Below are positions 5,198 through 17,696 of a DNA stretch of 22,262 bases, piece by piece. Origin of the DNA: a virus (Duplodnaviria; Heunggongvirae; Uroviricota; Caudoviricetes); IMG/VR virus record IMGVR_UViG_2563366960_000006. One strand, written 5' to 3'. Both the position numbers and the translations under genes were made by a program. Every line of letters starts with the position of its first letter. The first letter of the stretch is position 1. Under the pieces are notes generated by a model that was not told the DNA's origin, ran no database searches, and saw nothing but the letters and a program-made list of their open reading frames with translations.

Positions 5198-5566
5198 TCA
5201 GGCGGCCTTGATAGTCATATCATCTGAATCAAATATTCCTGATGTATCGATATCGGTAATTCTTATTCCTTCACTACCATCCATTGGAGGCCATCCTTCC
5301 TGACCATTTCCATCATTCCAGTCGAACTCACACACAACACCATATGCATTTAAGTCGCTTGAAATTGCTATAAGCAGAGCATGTTGCGCCAGCATGATTA
5401 ATACAGCATTTAATACAGAGCCGTGTTTATTGAGTCGGTATTCAGAGTCTGACCAGAAATTATTAATCTGGTGAAGTTTTTCCTCTGTCATTACGTCATG
5501 GTCAATTTCAATTTCTATTGATGCTTTCCAGTCGTAATCAATGATGTATTTTTTGATGTTTGACAT
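5198..5566 (-). CDS. ea10: Ea10-like early protein (122 aa)
   Basis: MSNIKKYIIDYDWKASIEIEIDHDVMTEEKLHQINNFWSDSEYRL... matches my recollection of lambda Ea10; located just distal to cIII as in lambda. Confidence 0.75.
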   Translation of the reverse strand: MSNIKKYIIDYDWKASIEIEIDHDVMTEEKLHQINNFWSDSEYRLNKHGSVLNAVLIMLAQHALLIAISSDLNAYGVVCEFDWNDGNGQEGWPPMDGSEGIRITDIDTSGIFDSDDMTIKAA

Positions 5567-5716: not shown

Positions 5717-6187
5717 CTAATAAAACACCCAGTTTTCTGTTTCTTGGTTGTGTCCAAAGTTATATTCAATATCTGGTGTTGATGTATCAATATTCTTCAT
5801 CCCATCAACAAGAGTTGATACAACAGCCAAATCTTGTTTGATTCTCATTAAATGGTATTTCTTCCGGCGCAATAAACTTTCAATGGCAAGTTTCTTCGTT
5901 GGGAATGCAAAAGATCTTTCTGCATTTTTTGCTACTTTCTTAATTGCATATCTATTTCTCTTTTGTTTCCATTCCTGTAACCACTGATTTGGTGCTGGTT
6001 TAAAATTAACAATCCAATGCGCAGGAACCAACCATGCATAATGCTCTGTCTGATGAAAAGCTATATATTGAAGTGCGAATATTTTGATTCCATCTTCTTC
6101 AACTGTCGCCTGGAATCTCCAGAAAACAGGCATTCCATCATGTTCAGTTTCTGATTCAGGAAAAGGTACGCTCCATGATTTTGTCAT
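5717..6187 (-). CDS. Hypothetical protein (156 aa), moron-like cargo at the ral/sieB position
   Basis: ORF with ATG at 6187 and SD GAGGTGA; Trp-rich N-terminal half and a strongly basic central segment (KQKRNRYAIKKVAKNAERSF...LLRRKKYHLMRIKQ). No motif I recognise. Flanked by terminator-like hairpins on both sides. Confidence 0.6.
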   Translation of the reverse strand: MTKSWSVPFPESETEHDGMPVFWRFQATVEEDGIKIFALQYIAFHQTEHYAWLVPAHWIVNFKPAPNQWLQEWKQKRNRYAIKKVAKNAERSFAFPTKKLAIESLLRRKKYHLMRIKQDLAVVSTLVDGMKNIDTSTPDIEYNFGHNQETENWVFY

Positions 6188-6232: not shown

Positions 6233-6261
6233 GCCAAAAATAAAGGCCGATTATGCGGCCT
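6233..6261 (-). terminator. Intrinsic terminator on the minus strand after the 207-aa gene
   Basis: Plus 6244-6261 AGGCCG-ATTATG-CGGCCT; on the minus strand the hairpin is followed by TTTATTTTTGG. The gene's stop codon (6251-6253) lies in the loop. Confidence 0.4.
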
Positions 6262-6874
6262 CGGAAGGAAGTCCAATCATCTTATTCAAATCTTCTACCC
6301 GTAAAGCAGGAAGTGCTGCACTTGCTTTATCTGCTTCTTTTGGTAGCAACTCTTTGCTTTCAGGCCAAACTTCAATAAGTCGCTTAACTGTTGTGACTGA
6401 GTTCAAAGCAGCCCATACATTTGATTCGATATCCTTTTTCTTGGCTTCAAGTTTTTGTTGCAATGCGCAGATTTCATCAAACCTTTTTGTTATTTCGTGT
6501 TCTGCGCTAAACATGCATTTATATTGGGTCGGAGTAGGGAGCAATATATCTTCGCCGTTGCCGTCTTTCCCATATGAAAGCCATCCAACCCTTCTGCCAG
6601 ATACAGTCAGATAAATTGATGCAGAACGAACATCGCATGAGCAAAATGAACATCCCAGTTTTTCAAGTTCTTCACTTATAGCTACTAACTTGGATGATAA
6701 CTGATCCACTTCCTCAGTTTTCTTTTTACCGCCAAACGCAATAACTCTGGCGTTAAGTGCAAGCTGGTTCTTTAACTTTGTTACTTCTTTAAGTTCAGTG
6801 AAAACCCCAGACTTAATTAAAGCGTTACGAGCGATTTCCTCTTTCATTCTCGTAGTTAAGCGGATTGATGACAT
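6251..6874 (-). CDS. Hypothetical protein (207 aa from ATG at 6874), first gene after N
   Basis: Track ORF extends to 6934, but ATG at 6874 has a good SD (GAGAGGAA) and avoids overlap with N. Predicted coiled-coil segments and a Cys cluster (GCSFCSCD). Sits where lambda carries sieB/ral. Confidence 0.6.
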   Translation of the reverse strand: MSSIRLTTRMKEEIARNALIKSGVFTELKEVTKLKNQLALNARVIAFGGKKKTEEVDQLSSKLVAISEELEKLGCSFCSCDVRSASIYLTVSGRRVGWLSYGKDGNGEDILLPTPTQYKCMFSAEHEITKRFDEICALQQKLEAKKKDIESNVWAALNSVTTVKRLIEVWPESKELLPKEADKASAALPALRVEDLNKMIGLPSEAA

Positions 6875-6885
6875 ATTAATTCCTC

Positions 6886-7185
6886 TCAAATAAGTTGTTT
6901 GCTGCCTAATTTTATTTTCTGGCGACCAACACAAGTCACACCCATTTCACTCCGTGGTTTCCGGTAGTAAATACGGTTCTGTTTACGCTCGACTTCTTCT
7001 GCCTTCTTGCAGCGAAGGCTTCCGAGTGATGCTGCTTTATCTGCTCTGACGCAACCAGAGAGCTTTAGCGCAATTTTTCGCGCCAGTCGCTGCTCTTGCA
7101 TTGCCTGTTCACGTTGAGCCTGTCTGCGTGCTCTGCGGCGATTTCTGGCGTTATCGTCAGCCAGATATGTAATGACTACTGTCAT
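6886..7185 (-). CDS. N: N-like transcription antitermination protein (99 aa from ATG at 7185)
   Basis: First gene downstream of pL/nutL; arginine-rich N-terminus (NARNRRRARRQAQREQ); C-terminus ...RIYYRKPRSEMGVTCVGRQKIKLGSKQLI resembles the lambda N C-terminus (...TWYSKPGERGITCSGRQKIKGKSIPLI). N-terminal ARM differs from lambda N. Confidence 0.8.
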   Translation of the reverse strand: MTVVITYLADDNARNRRRARRQAQREQAMQEQRLARKIALKLSGCVRADKAASLGSLRCKKAEEVERKQNRIYYRKPRSEMGVTCVGRQKIKLGSKQLI

Positions 7186-7379: not shown

Positions 7380-7442
7380 AGTATCACCGCTAGTGGTATG
7401 TGTGTCAACACCGCCAGAGATAATTTATCACCGCAGATGGTT
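7380..7442 (-). promoter_or_regulatory. pL promoter with operators OL1-OL2-OL3
   Basis: 17-mers TATCACCGCTAGTGGTA (7382-7398, OL1), CAACACCGCCAGAGATA (7406-7422, OL2), TATCACCGCAGATGGTT (7426-7442, OL3); minus-strand -35 TTGACA (7403-7408) and -10 GATACT (7380-7385) with 17-nt spacing. OL2 and OL3 match lambda; OL1 differs by one base. Confidence 0.85.
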
Positions 7443-7599
7443 ATCTGTATGTTTTTTATATGGATTTATTTTTTTGCAGGGGTGCATTGTTTGGTAGGTG
7501 AGGGATCAGAATTGCACTGTTTAGCAAGTTGTATCTATCAATTTTTCAATAAATACAATTGGTTATGTTGTTATTAGGTGTGGGGATCGAGAGGCAAAG

Positions 7600-8310
7600 A
7601 AAACCCGGCACTGAGGCCGGGTTGTTATTGTGCACAGAAAACCCCCAGCTAGGCTGGGGGTTCCGGAAAGCTTTCAGCTTTGAGCCAGTTATTAAAACCC
7701 CTTTTGATTTGTTAAAACACCTTGCGGTCTGGCAACTGCAAGTGTCAAACAAGAAATCAAAAGGGGGTCCCAATGGGGAACGAAAAGAGCTTAGCGCACA
7801 CCCGATGGAACTGTAAATATCACATAGTATTTGCGCCAAAATACCGAAGACAGGTGTTCTACAGAGAGAAGCGTAGAGCAATAGGCTGTATTTTGAGAAA
7901 GCTGTGTGAGTGGAAAAGTGTACGGATTCTGGAAGCTGAATGCTGTGCAGATCATATCCATATGCTTGTGGAGATCCCGCCCAAAATGAGCGTATCAGGC
8001 TTTATGGGATATCTGAAAGGGAAAAGCAGTCTGATGCCTTACGAGCAGTTTGGTGATTTGAAATTCAAATACAGGAACAGGGAGTTCTGGTGCAGAGGGT
8101 ATTACGTCGATACGGTGGGTAAGAACACGGCGAAGATACAGGATTACATAAAGCACCAGCTTGAAGAGGATAAAATGGGAGAGCAGTTATCGATTCCCTA
8201 TCCGGGCAGCCCGTTTACGGGCCGTAAGTAACGAAGTTGGATGCAAATGTCAGATCGTGTGCGCCTGTTAGGGCGCGGCTGGTAAGAGAGCCTTATAGGC
8301 GCATTTGAAA
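7600..8310 (+). mobile_element. IS200-like insertion sequence (IS200/IS605 family); boundaries approximate
   Basis: Contains tnpA (7773-8231). Upstream are a terminator-like hairpin (7602-7623, then T-rich), a 10-bp stem-loop (7640-7662), and a long-range pairing between 7698-7710 and 7754-7766 that would sequester the tnpA SD (AAGGGGG), all as described for the IS200 left end. Exact termini not determined. Confidence 0.75.
7773..8231 (+). CDS. tnpA: IS200 transposase TnpA (Y1/HUH family, 152 aa)
   Basis: MGNEKSLAHTRWNCKYHIVFAPKYRRQVFYREKRRAIGCILRKLCEWKSVRILEAECCADHIHMLVEIPPKMSVSGFMGYLKGKSSL... matches IS200 TnpA (recall). ATG at 7773; the track ORF begins 51 nt earlier. Confidence 0.92.
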   Translation: MGNEKSLAHTRWNCKYHIVFAPKYRRQVFYREKRRAIGCILRKLCEWKSVRILEAECCADHIHMLVEIPPKMSVSGFMGYLKGKSSLMPYEQFGDLKFKYRNREFWCRGYYVDTVGKNTAKIQDYIKHQLEEDKMGEQLSIPYPGSPFTGRK

Positions 8311-8312
8311 AA

Positions 8313-8331
8313 CCTCCGGCTATGCCGGAGG
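8313..8331 (-). terminator. Intrinsic terminator on the minus strand after the cI-cassette operon (t-imm-like)
   Basis: Plus CCTCCGG-CTATG-CCGGAGG at 8313-8331; on the minus strand it is followed by TTTTTCAAAT, 5 nt after the 107-aa gene stop. It may alternatively belong to the IS200 right end. Confidence 0.45.
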
Positions 8332-8335
8332 ATAT

Positions 8336-8659
8336 TTATTTATGGAAAAACACTTCAAGTATTTTTGGGATTGCTGGTATGAGTTGTGAGGATACGACCG
8401 CACCTACAACCCATAGAATTATCGAAGTTTTCGCGTCGCTTACGTCTGATTTGGTTGCATAATTCGAGCGCATGACAGCCAGGTCGGTTTTCATTTGCTG
8501 AACATCTTTTTCGAGTTCTTTCACTCTTTGAAGCACATCATCACCTCCGCCATTGCCGCCACCATGCCGTGAGTATGCATCATCAGTGGGATAGTGTCCA
8601 ATTGGGCGAGATATGTTTTGATTTGGACGAAGTTGAGTAACCTTGTTATCTAAACTCAT
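8336..8659 (-). CDS. Small tail-anchored membrane protein (107 aa), second gene of a cassette replacing rexAB
   Basis: ATG at 8659. Gly-rich N-terminal region (GGGNGGGDD), predicted coiled coil (VLQRVKELEKDVQQMKTDLAVMRSNYATKSDVSDAK), C-terminal hydrophobic helix (SIILWVVGAVVSSQLIPAIPKILEVFF). Architecture resembles XhlA-type or holin-like small membrane proteins (by recall, not searched). Start overlaps the upstream gene by 14 nt. Confidence 0.65.
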   Translation of the reverse strand: MSLDNKVTQLRPNQNISRPIGHYPTDDAYSRHGGGNGGGDDVLQRVKELEKDVQQMKTDLAVMRSNYATKSDVSDAKTSIILWVVGAVVSSQLIPAIPKILEVFFHK

Positions 8660-9083
8660 CGCGAACTGATCCTGTTATCTTCACGTCAAAAAACGAACTT
8701 TTTACATCAATTACTTCGCCTTTCTCAGGATTAACCAGTGATGCTCTAACTTCGAATATCCCAGGCTTGATAATTTTCACCCTTGGGAAGTTAATTCTCA
8801 TAGAAGTTGATACGATGGTTTCTCCATCGTTGGCTTCTGCTACCGTAAAAAACTTATGGTTGGAGTACAGTTTTGTGTCAATTGGTATCGGTATTTCTTG
8901 AGCATTGAAAACCTCAATGCCTATGGAATATTTTTTTGTAGCCTTAAGGCCGATAAAAAAAGCGCCAAATGACAGATCCACTTCATGGGAGTCTTTATCC
9001 ATTTCATAGATAAGAACTGGAGTTACGGGGTTGCCTTCATCCATCGCAATCGGAATGATATAAGAAATACGTTCTTTAATCAT
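8646..9083 (-). CDS. Hypothetical soluble protein (145 aa), first gene of a cassette replacing rexAB
   Basis: ATG at 9083 lies 7 nt after the cI stop codon (9091-9093), same strand, no intervening terminator, so it should be co-transcribed with cI. No recognisable motif; low-GC composition. Confidence 0.65.
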   Translation of the reverse strand: MIKERISYIIPIAMDEGNPVTPVLIYEMDKDSHEVDLSFGAFFIGLKATKKYSIGIEVFNAQEIPIPIDTKLYSNHKFFTVAEANDGETIVSTSMRINFPRVKIIKPGIFEVRASLVNPEKGEVIDVKSSFFDVKITGSVRDEFR

Positions 9084-9090
9084 TTACGTG

Positions 9091-9807
<717 letters not shown>

Positions 9808-9814
9808 TTAAATC

Positions 9815-9880
9815 TATCACCGCAAGGGATAAATATCTAACACCGTGCGTGTTGACTATTTTACCTCTAGCGGTGATAAT
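9815..9880. promoter_or_regulatory. OR3-OR2-OR1 operators with divergent pRM and pR promoters
   Basis: OR3 TATCACCGCAAGGGATA (9815-9831), OR2 TAACACCGTGCGTGTTG (9838-9854), OR1 TACCTCTAGCGGTGATA (9862-9878); pR -35 TTGACT (9852-9857), -10 GATAAT (9875-9880). OR3 and OR2 match lambda; OR1 differs by one base. Confidence 0.9.
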
Positions 9881-16187: not shown

Positions 16188-17270
16188 TTAGAACTGATAA
16201 ACCAGACCTACAGCGACGATGTCGTCGGTATCAATACCAGCTGTTTTGGTAAACTTACTATCGTCAATTAAGTTGATTTTGTAATCAACAAAAGTGGACA
16301 TGTTTTTATTAAAGTAGTAAGTAGCACCGACATCGACATACTTGACTAAGTCTCGGTCACCATGAACACCAAGGTCTTTACCTTTTGACTGAAGGTAAGC
16401 AACAGATGGACGCAGACCGAAGTCAAACTGATATTGTGCTACTGCTTCAAAGTTTTGTGCTTTGTTTGCAATATGGTTATTACCAAAAACGGTCATATTC
16501 TGAGTTTCAGAATATGTGGTAGCCAGATAGATATTGTTCGCATCATATTTCAGGCCTGCAGCCCATACTTCCGCATTTTTGCCGGAGGCATTGAATTTGC
16601 TCTTACCATAGGCGACCTGACCGTCAGTGCGATCTGATTTAGCATAGGTTGCACCCACGCCGAATCCTTCATACTCATAAGTAGTGGAGAAACCGAAACC
16701 ATCACCATTGGCTTCAGTTACGTCAGTGCGGTCATTTTTACCCTGATACTGAGCAGCAAAGTTCAGGCCATCGACCAGACCAAAGAAGTCGTTGTTACGA
16801 TAAGTTGCAACACCAGTAGTGCGACCAGTCATGAACACATCTGTTTGGGTCCAGGTATCACCACCGAATTCTGGCAGAACGTCAGTCCACGCACCGATGT
16901 CGTATGCTACACCGTAGTTACGGCCGTAATCGATTGAGCCGTAATCACCAAATTTCAGGCCTGCAAATGCAAGACGGGTTTTGTCTTTGGAAGAACCTTG
17001 AGATTCAGCACGGTTGCCTTTGAATTCATATTCCCACTGACCGAAACCAGTCAGTTGATCGTTGATTTGGGTTTCACCTTTGAAGCCAAGACGGGCATAA
17101 GTAGTATCACCATCATCTGCATCATTAGAGGAGAAGTAGTGCTTGGCATTAACTTTCCCGTATAGATCCAGCTTGTTACTGTCTTTATTATAAATTTCAG
17201 CTGCCTGAGCAGACATCGCCATCAGTACTGATGCAGCTACAGCAGAAATTGCCACTGTTAATTTTTTCAT
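16188..17270 (-). CDS. nmpC: Phage-borne outer-membrane general porin (OmpC/OmpF/PhoE family; NmpC/Lc-type), 360 aa
   Basis: Signal peptide [23 protein letters not shown] then [17 protein letters not shown]..., porin PEFGGD motif, C-terminal ...VGLVYQF. ATG at 17270 (track ORF extends 60 nt upstream). Located between Q and the lysis cassette, as nmpC is in DLP12. Confidence 0.9.
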
Positions 17271-17696
17271 TGTACGCCCTTTTTTTGAACTATTATTAAA
17301 AAATGATGTCACTGCGCGATAAATATTCATCTAATCAATGTGATTATTTCAAGATGTAAGTTTTAGTTTCTCATTTAATTTGTGAAGTAGATCTCTATTT
17401 TTATCTGAACCTTTTCTATCTAATCCTATTCATGGCTCTTGTCTGAACAAAAATAAATCTATTAGCTAATTTATATTAATGGCACTTATTTATAAGTGCT
17501 CTATAATTCTTTAGCTTAATTTAAACAAACTAAAAATAACATCGGAAATTATTAACTGGTTATTTGTTGAAGTTTTCTTATGCATTTGTGGTGGTGTTTT
17601 GAACACTCGGTGGCATTCTCACAAATATCATTTAGTAGTTTACGTACGTAAAAAATTGGTTATGCTGTTAAGAGTGGTTACTTCGTCACACAGCTT

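Follow-up and report, generated by a model that had tools for sequence, protein, structure and literature searches.

A repressor-coupled gene pair in the rexAB slot of a lambdoid prophage: a candidate two-part exclusion module of enterobacterial temperate phages

The virus record IMGVR_UViG_2563366960_000006 (Caudoviricetes), a stretch of 22,262 nucleotides that is referred to throughout as the window, contains a lambda-type immunity region in which the cI repressor gene is followed by two small open reading frames (ORFs), here called A (145 aa) and B (107 aa), in the place where lambda carries rexA and rexB. On sequence comparison, A–B is an exact cargo replacement in the slot between the cI stop codon and the tIMM terminator, and homologues of A were found paired with B, directly behind repressors of many unrelated types, across the Enterobacterales. 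Our analysis suggests that A–B is plausibly a lysogen-expressed two-part exclusion or abortive-infection module, in which a soluble protein (A) would partner a small membrane protein (B), and we consider it somewhat probable that the pair is an anti-phage exclusion module of some kind. The features of the immunity region are as follows.

9852–9880: pR-like promoter (promoter scan)
9815–9878: operators OR3-OR2-OR1 with pRM/pR (operator matches)
9091–9804, minus strand: cI (237 aa), repressor of the lambda immunity type, which opens the pRM operon (HTH_3 and Peptidase_S24 domains)
8646–9083, minus strand: gene A, 145 aa, predicted cytoplasmic all-beta protein with an immunoglobulin (Ig)-like sandwich, phrog_5893 (ORF, PHROG match)
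8336–8659, minus strand: gene B, 107 aa, predicted tail-anchored membrane protein, phrog_6324/6136/3556 (ORF, PHROG match, AlphaFold2, hydropathy)
8543–8560, minus strand: mosaic junction in B, DNA for the Gly run GGNGGG (residues 34–39 of G33–G39) (homology break, B-variant alignment)
Approx. 7630–8335, plus strand: intact copy of the insertion sequence (IS) IS200C, between the B stop codon and the tIMM-like terminator (junction defined against LR-60)
8308–8331: right-end hairpin and T-run of IS200C (terminator scan)
7722–8231, plus strand: tnpA of IS200C, Y1_Tnp domain (domain match)
7596–7623, minus strand: native rho-independent terminator, homologue of lambda tIMM and left boundary of the cargo slot (terminator scan, LR-60, Timm alignment)
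7382–7442: operators OL1-OL2-OL3 with pL (operator matches; HK97, mEp332 and CL707 have homologous OL/pL regions)
7408–7380, minus strand: pL promoter, −35/−10 (promoter scan)

The A–B cassette in the cI-to-tIMM slot

The cI gene is approx. 92% identical at the DNA level with those of lambda, HK97 and mEp234, among others, in agreement with the near-lambda cI that had been described in a first-pass annotation of this sequence; its product has the same length as that of lambda (237 aa) and its ATG lies at the position of the leaderless pRM start of lambda. OR2 and OR3 have the lambda operator sequences, whereas OR1 (9862–9878) is one base off lambda OR1 (TATCACCGCTAGAGGTA) and OL1 (7382–7398) is one base off lambda OL1 (TATCACCGCTAGTGGTA). 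An ORF check bore out the coordinates given in that annotation for the three ORFs, i.e. a 7 nt gap between the cI stop codon and the start of A and a 14 nt overlap between the end of A and the start of B, the latter being preceded by an AGGA Shine–Dalgarno sequence. The GC content of A is 0.38, compared with 0.455 for the window. A and B are real genes, as their protein homologues are conserved across genera with identities of 44–86% for A and 50–90% for B, and both are intact despite the IS insertion next to them. Given that the cassette lies on the cI strand, replaces rexAB and leaves no space for a separate strong promoter, its expression from pRM in lysogens would be the natural expectation. 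In Salmonella P22-like prophages (L002 and L019–L032), the longest A ORF has 157 aa, starts upstream and overlaps the repressor stop codon by 4 nt; as the E. coli A starts 7 nt past the repressor stop, one of the two lineages must be taken to have an uncertain start codon for A.

The left boundary of the cassette was defined by comparison with E. coli LR-60, in which cI–A–B is 99.8% identical with the window and no IS is present. Alignment with this genome places the IS site directly 3′ of the TAA that ends B; in LR-60 this codon runs straight into CCCGGCctcagtGCCGGGTTTTCTTT, a sequence that in the window occupies 7596–7623. This native hairpin, together with the sequence leftward of it, gives an 84% alignment to the OL-to-Timm segment of HK97, mEp332 and CL707, the homology ending at the hairpin, and Timm is annotated in mEp332 and CL707 as the terminator of the pRM/pRE transcripts. 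Because A begins 7 nt after cI and the B stop codon of LR-60 abuts the Timm homologue, with OL/pL next, the cassette can be read from these alignments as an exact exchange of the cargo in the slot, which bears out the earlier view that it stands in place of rexA–rexB.

Thousands of E. coli genomes carry IS200C copies with 98–99% identity to window 7602–8343, which takes in the DNA that now separates B from this terminator. The perfect hairpin and T-run at 8313–8331, which the first-pass annotation had taken to close the operon, do exist; as the operon terminator they were rejected, being the right end of IS200C, and that function is assigned to the native hairpin at 7596–7623. As both ends of the IS carry a hairpin and T-run on the minus strand (7638–7660 and 8308–8331), pRM transcripts probably now end in the right end of the IS.

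The identity of the other occupants of this slot is what connects A–B with defence. The cI-to-tIMM cargo is rexAB in lambda, a single 301 aa protein that is BstA (PADLOC, E 1e-105) in CL707, gp49 plus gp48 in HK97 (L036, 1171–2075) and a single 345 aa protein, mEp332_04, in mEp332 (L037, 1758–2795), the HK97 and mEp332 cargoes having no Pfam or PADLOC match. In the published study of BstA, the repressor-proximal position was found to be conserved and the cI–N region to be a hotspot of mosaic diversity with synteny shared with RexAB, and the slot was described as carrying abortive-infection systems (PMC8585504). The cI-to-N slot is a classic site for host-protecting genes of temperate phages (RexAB and BstA), and as the five types of cargo seen here include no fewer than two validated abortive-infection systems (rexAB and BstA), a defence role for A–B is argued mainly, and indirectly, from this company. 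The likeness of BstA (BTP1, CL707) to A–B lies in its repressor-proximal slot, including that of a phage of lambda immunity, and in being a prophage abortive-infection protein tied to repressors; it differs in being a single, DNA-associated protein of approx. 300 aa, unrelated in sequence and with no membrane component. Two separate observations concern the same slot: the BstA homologue of CL707 (L038, EF120459, 2643–3548) is CL70704, a ‘hypothetical protein’ whose relationship goes unmentioned in the GenBank record, and HK97 gp49/gp48 and mEp332_04 are further candidates of the same positional class.

Pairing of A and B behind prophage repressors

A profile survey of the fetched loci clearly shows that A is followed directly by B in all 38 of the 38 A-bearing loci (35 together with L039, L040 and L042), the two genes overlapping by 14, 8 or 1 nt or being separated by a gap within approx. 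20 nt. In every locus the gene upstream of A encodes a repressor, and at least 12 types with no relationship to one another are represented across the Enterobacterales: the CI of lambda, the type of epsilon34, a separate S24 type in strain PK5, a RacR-like small helix–turn–helix (HTH) protein beside YdaS/YdaT, a 126 aa HTH_3 protein, an Arc-type repressor (Photorhabdus) and five more unrelated S24 repressors from IMG/VR prophages among them. The co-occurrence of the pair at the repressor-proximal position, which had been put forward before as something to look for, is therefore very strong, and the pair of the window has the arrangement of the family, i.e. A, then B, directly downstream of a prophage repressor. 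The pairing also appeared when the survey was run from either side. With B as the seed, every enterobacterial case proved to have just upstream a 134–151 aa protein of no Pfam family that is a diverged A homologue (for example, one with 28% identity, E 2e-9), and with remote A proteins as seeds a B-type protein was next in every case.

Two B-like genes were found to stand without A. One encodes a remote 80 aa chromosomal relative (L014) and the other lies in a non-enterobacterial prophage (L041, GCA_036861825.1, 3501–3806), approx. 600 nt downstream of a CI-like HTH gene; the latter product has the Gly run, an ATKAD motif and the transmembrane (TM) helix of a B-type protein, and a six-frame search of the locus revealed no A homologue.

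True homologues of the pair are also present in cultivable Salmonella phages. In epsilon34, gp45 and gp44 are 73% identical with A and 53% identical with B respectively, have the same order and overlap, and lie directly after the repressor and before OL/pL, although the repressor is of another type and the coiled-coil/TM part of gp44 is of type III, compared with type I in the window. The P22-like phages g341c (gp40/gp39) and NM-3 carry A–B homologues as well. The genome paper on epsilon34 described genes 44 and 45 in 2008 as lying downstream of the repressor “like rexA and rexB” with no database match (PMC2629481), so that the positional insight was already in print. What is already known comprises this epsilon34 analogy and rex-slot cargo in the form of a soluble and a membrane protein; what is new is that A and B are strictly paired behind repressors of many types, together with the fold of A, the description of B as a tail-anchored protein with a beta-layer motif and an architecture in which modules are swapped at a hinge.

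The distribution of A–B is patchy and accessory, yet spread over many enterobacterial genera. Near-identical A–B DNA was found in approx. 16 of 5426 complete E. coli genomes, including that of enteropathogenic E. coli (EPEC) E2348/69, and the plasmid collection contained no A homologue. The A family comprised 20 clusters by single-sequence search and 51 by profile, and a hidden Markov model scan of 1.8 billion representatives gave 95 matches, approx. 70 of which are single-domain proteins of 131–153 aa. The B family is broader, with 89 clusters from Escherichia, Salmonella, Enterobacter, Klebsiella, Kluyvera, Leclercia, Cedecea, Pantoea, Pectobacterium, Serratia, Cronobacter, Citrobacter, Raoultella, Photorhabdus, Providencia and Edwardsiella. 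In Photorhabdus asymbiotica (FM162591), two A–B copies were observed in one genome (L012 and L013), each lying behind an Arc-type repressor pair and ahead of genes for a KilA-N protein, a hok/gef toxin and tail or baseplate proteins; these may be tailocin-like or phage-like elements and not lambdoid prophages.

An exclusive association with repressors of every type might also be expected of a module that serves the prophage itself, either with A neutralizing a membrane toxin B or with the pair tuning the passage from lysogeny to lysis. RexA and RexB have been reported to tune this transition, and a small soluble gene upstream of a membrane gene, with overlapping or abutting ORFs, is typical of toxin–antitoxin pairs. 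However, neither A nor B matched a toxin–antitoxin family in Pfam, NCBIfam or PADLOC, and many such modules act in defence, so that this explanation, which we regard as unlikely, overlaps with that of an exclusion module.

Predicted architecture of A and B

A was modelled with AlphaFold2 from a 44-sequence alignment as an eight-strand beta-sandwich with a mean predicted local distance difference test (pLDDT) score of 90.6 and a predicted template modelling (pTM) score of 0.85, and on this model we are confident that it has a generic Ig-like beta-sandwich fold. Hydropathy analysis revealed no TM or other hydrophobic segment and no signal-like region, in keeping with the soluble protein that had been postulated. 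A matched phrog_5893 (E 3e-64), and a search of PDB sequences with the A profile returned only noise (Rsa4, E 0.03).

B, which matches the PHROG phrog_6324 of unknown function (E 2e-17), is laid out as a disordered N-terminal tail (N-tail; residues 1–32), a Gly-rich hinge (33–39), a coiled coil (approx. 40–78), a TM helix (79–98) and a C-tail of nine residues. Its hydrophobic segment at 79–98, with a Kyte–Doolittle mean of 1.96, is the sole one in the protein, and the AlphaFold2 monomer has disorder over residues 1–39 and one helix over 40–105 at low confidence (pLDDT 56), which makes it useful only for this layout. The Gly-rich segment, the coiled coil and the single C-terminal hydrophobic helix noted at first reading are therefore all borne out, the coiled coil as part of a long predicted helix. 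Among homologues the Gly-rich segment HGGGNGGGDDML is near-invariant and the preceding N-tail variable, and the helix that follows reads RVKxLExDVxxMKTDxAVxxSNYATKxD. The B profile matched the engineered coiled coils 5apx, 5apz and 5apw in the PDB (E 3.6e-5 to 3.5e-4), the alignment placing NYATKxDV of B on to the MATKDD insert of these structures, and in the window protein the corresponding YATKSD, conserved among homologues, lies directly N-terminal to the TM helix. In the structures the MATKDD motif forms a beta-layer and every construct was a trimer; membrane proteins of the DUF1640 family, from prokaryotes and mitochondria, are recognized by this consensus too (PMC4786415). By this reasoning B is probably a trimeric, tail-anchored coiled-coil membrane protein, for which we infer an orientation with the N-terminus inside.

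As a predicted small inner-membrane protein of a prophage, B might with A as its partner bring about superinfection exclusion without cell death, blocking DNA entry or an inner-membrane component that phages need, in the manner of small Sie proteins. Linkage to a repressor would switch such a module on only in lysogens, and an exchangeable membrane module could match different entry routes. However, the bulk of B is predicted to be cytoplasmic, with approx. nine residues past the TM helix that would offer little to contact a periplasmic injection apparatus, and Pfam, PHROGs and PADLOC revealed no resemblance to the SieA, SieB, Imm, Cor or HK97 gp15 families. We think this as unlikely as a role of the pair in serving the prophage itself.

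The beta-layer motif also raises the possibility of a lysogenic-conversion factor acting on host physiology (envelope stress, stationary-phase survival or virulence), with B resembling host tail-anchored coiled-coil proteins. A coiled coil with a C-terminal anchor and a beta-layer motif is common to DUF1640-type membrane proteins, remote free-standing chromosomal B-like genes do exist (L014), and the pair occurs in pathogens such as EPEC E2348/69. The resemblance to DUF1640/CCDC90-like proteins lies in their beta-layer consensus, [aliphatic]-A-T-K-[polar]-[DE], compared with YATKSD before the TM helix of B; however, the first motif position of B is a tyrosine and not aliphatic, and the Pfam CCDC90-like match was far below threshold, being insignificant (E 0.07) and confined to a remote B relative. 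Strict coupling to phage repressors, module swapping and patchy distribution look, moreover, like the marks of conflict genes, and we consider a host-physiology role improbable, more so than either of the alternatives above.

The similarity of B to XhlA (PF10779), a small protein that Bacillus prophages encode in their lysis cassettes and in which an N-terminal coiled coil precedes a C-terminal TM helix, suggests a further explanation in which B would aid lysis by holin and endolysin, as XhlA does in Bacillus PBSX, with A as its partner. The type II B variant of strain PK5 (P0085) is named ‘hemolysin XhlA family protein’ in RefSeq, weak matches were obtained for this variant to Pfam XhlA (21.6 bits) and for window B to a PHROG annotated ‘hemolysin’ (E 0.05), and the gene before xhlA in PBSX, xepA, likewise has a beta-sandwich protein as its product. 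However, the type II score is under the gathering cut-off of 34.7, the type I B of the window has no XhlA match in Pfam at E<=1, and the PDB search with the A profile found no XepA/YomS chain by sequence, its noise-only result leaving no sequence link between A and these proteins. The XhlA gene belongs to a late lytic operon, whereas in every locus B lies within the repressor operon, with the repressor on one side and OL/pL or early-left genes on the other, and not in a lysis cassette. An operon that is on in lysogeny and off after induction is the opposite of what a lysis gene needs, and this prophage has its own lysis region elsewhere. The operon context makes this the least likely of the explanations, and we regard it as very improbable.

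The construction of B was examined further in an alignment of B variants, with identity statistics, from 19 distinct A–B pairs. The Gly run is the point at which the N-tail meets one of at least four unrelated coiled-coil/TM modules, and the DNA homology of the window to E2348/69, PK5 and a further 12 E. coli genomes ends at 8543, i.e. at B codon 39/40, the last Gly codon. The identities of A and of the N-tail move together (A/N-tail pairs of 0.99/0.94, 0.75/0.77, 0.49/0.50, 0.25/0.25 and 0.21/0.17), whereas the coiled-coil/TM part can be 0.30 identical beside a 99%-identical A and 0.90 identical beside a 25%-identical A. The Spearman coefficient of A with the N-tail was +0.67 and that with the coiled-coil/TM part −0.30. 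These comparisons fit a co-adapted unit made of A and the N-tail and an exchangeable membrane unit. We rejected the co-variation as proof that A binds B, as A and the tail are contiguous DNA. A search for a natural A–B fusion revealed none, P0117 being merely an N-terminally extended A.

Possible roles of the pair and neighbouring prophage genes

Compared with RexAB, A–B shares the slot from cI stop to tIMM, the cI strand, the combination of one soluble and one membrane protein and presumed expression from pRM, but is smaller, with a total of 252 aa compared with approx. 420. RexB is a polytopic membrane channel with four TM helices, activated by RexA as the soluble sensor, and the outcome is depolarization and the exclusion of T4 rII mutants; in B, a coiled coil leads to a single TM helix at the C-terminus. 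Neither A nor B matched a Rex family in Pfam, NCBIfam, PADLOC or PHROGs, as had been expected from inspection. The sensor-plus-effector analogy with RexA and RexB drawn at first reading is therefore one of architecture, given the single TM helix of B and the beta-sandwich of A. RexA has been described as a DNA-binding protein (PMC11077077), whereas A is predicted to be an Ig-like beta-sandwich.

A further parallel is offered by the Rex-like systems of the actinobacteriophages Sbash and CarolAnn, which consist of a soluble and a membrane protein encoded near the repressor and have no known sequence similarity to RexAB. Like A–B as proposed here, they are prophage-expressed two-gene defence systems; they differ in that their sequences and hosts are unrelated and that they have phenotypes.

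If A–B is an abortive-infection module, B would insert in the inner membrane via its single C-terminal helix, leaving the N-terminal 78 residues in the cytoplasm, and would trimerize through a coiled coil with an ATKxD beta-layer. A, as a cytoplasmic Ig-like beta-sandwich, would bind the disordered N-tail of B and either hold B inactive or activate it on cue. Infection by a heterologous phage would then alter the A–B interaction, through a phage protein that binds A or through loss of A, and the helices of B would perturb the membrane by depolarization or leakage, so that the infection aborts. Induction of the resident prophage would turn pRM off and so limit self-harm. Binding between A and B, membrane damage and an anti-phage effect are all inferred steps in this scheme, and we advance the specific mechanism, with A as sensor or regulator and B as membrane effector, only tentatively, with less confidence than an exclusion role of some kind.

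Several observations weigh against this proposal. B has a lone TM helix and lacks any signature of pore formation, and the model and sequence of A, the fold of which is generic, contain no recognizable sensor, catalytic or ligand site, in line with the first report of no catalytic motif. The co-variation of A with the N-tail may be plain physical linkage, as A and the tail are contiguous and the conserved DNA of the Gly run could be a crossover site. The non-enterobacterial B-type gene of L041 indicates that B can exist without A, so that A is not always required. In addition, A–B is known only beside repressors and never in defence islands or plasmids, which fits a role in the lysogeny switch too. 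Among defence resources, PADLOC-DB v2.0.0 gave no family for A or B at E<=1, newer catalogues being outside the scope of this search, and the RefSeq accessions of A and B had no match in the DefensePredictor supplements. Our literature search found no experimental phenotype for A–B. As the PADLOC check returned no defence model for the pair, the defence reading rests on position and architecture.

Scans of Pfam, NCBIfam, PADLOC and PHROGs with A and B gave only PHROGs of unknown function and sub-threshold noise (DotH/IcmK, S7e, Cep57 and XhlA), with no homology above threshold to a family with an established non-defence role, and we found no paper naming the RefSeq accessions of the two proteins. 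The family is uncharacterized and unnamed, although the E. coli prophage defence screen of Brenes & Laub (2025) might already include the pair. A more general proposal, which we make with greater reserve than the mechanism itself, is that A/B could be an unrecognized and widespread two-component family of abortive-infection systems that enterobacterial temperate phages couple to their repressors, in which a fast-diverging Ig-like cytoplasmic sensor is combined with swappable trimeric effectors linked to it by the N-tail and exchanged at the Gly hinge, as a miniature, modular analogue of RexAB. If the pair excludes phages, it would constitute a minimal and tractable system of sensor plus membrane effector (145 + 107 aa), would make available naturally occurring sets of swapped effector modules and of diverged sensor/tail pairs with which to dissect specificity, and would add a defence family missed by current tools in E. 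coli, Salmonella, Klebsiella, Enterobacter and their relatives. Tests are straightforward, as the pair is carried by the well-studied EPEC E2348/69 and by two Salmonella phages that can be cultivated, epsilon34 and g341c; should no anti-phage effect be found, the exclusive coupling to every type of repressor would point to a new role in lysogeny itself.

Other regions of the prophage were also inspected. The first-pass annotation had stated that the ral/sieB position is substituted too, and this was upheld by the presence there of a 227 aa protein with a full-length Nmad5 domain (6251–6934, minus strand; PF18757, E 1.7e-68) and of a 156 aa ORF without a Pfam match (5717–6187, minus strand), which is also found in E2348/69. 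The Nmad5 gene, which lies just to the left of the N-like antiterminator gene, has no PADLOC match; a figure legend in the DefensePredictor paper places NMAD domains among newly validated defence domains. In the early-left region, the 156 aa ORF and a gene for a DUF2528 protein (5198–5566, minus strand) separate the Nmad5 gene from genes similar to gam, bet and exo. In the right arm of the prophage, on the opposite strand, there is a gene for a 380 aa general porin (16188–17330, minus strand; Porin_1, E 2e-151), which resembles the porin morons of other lambdoid prophages.

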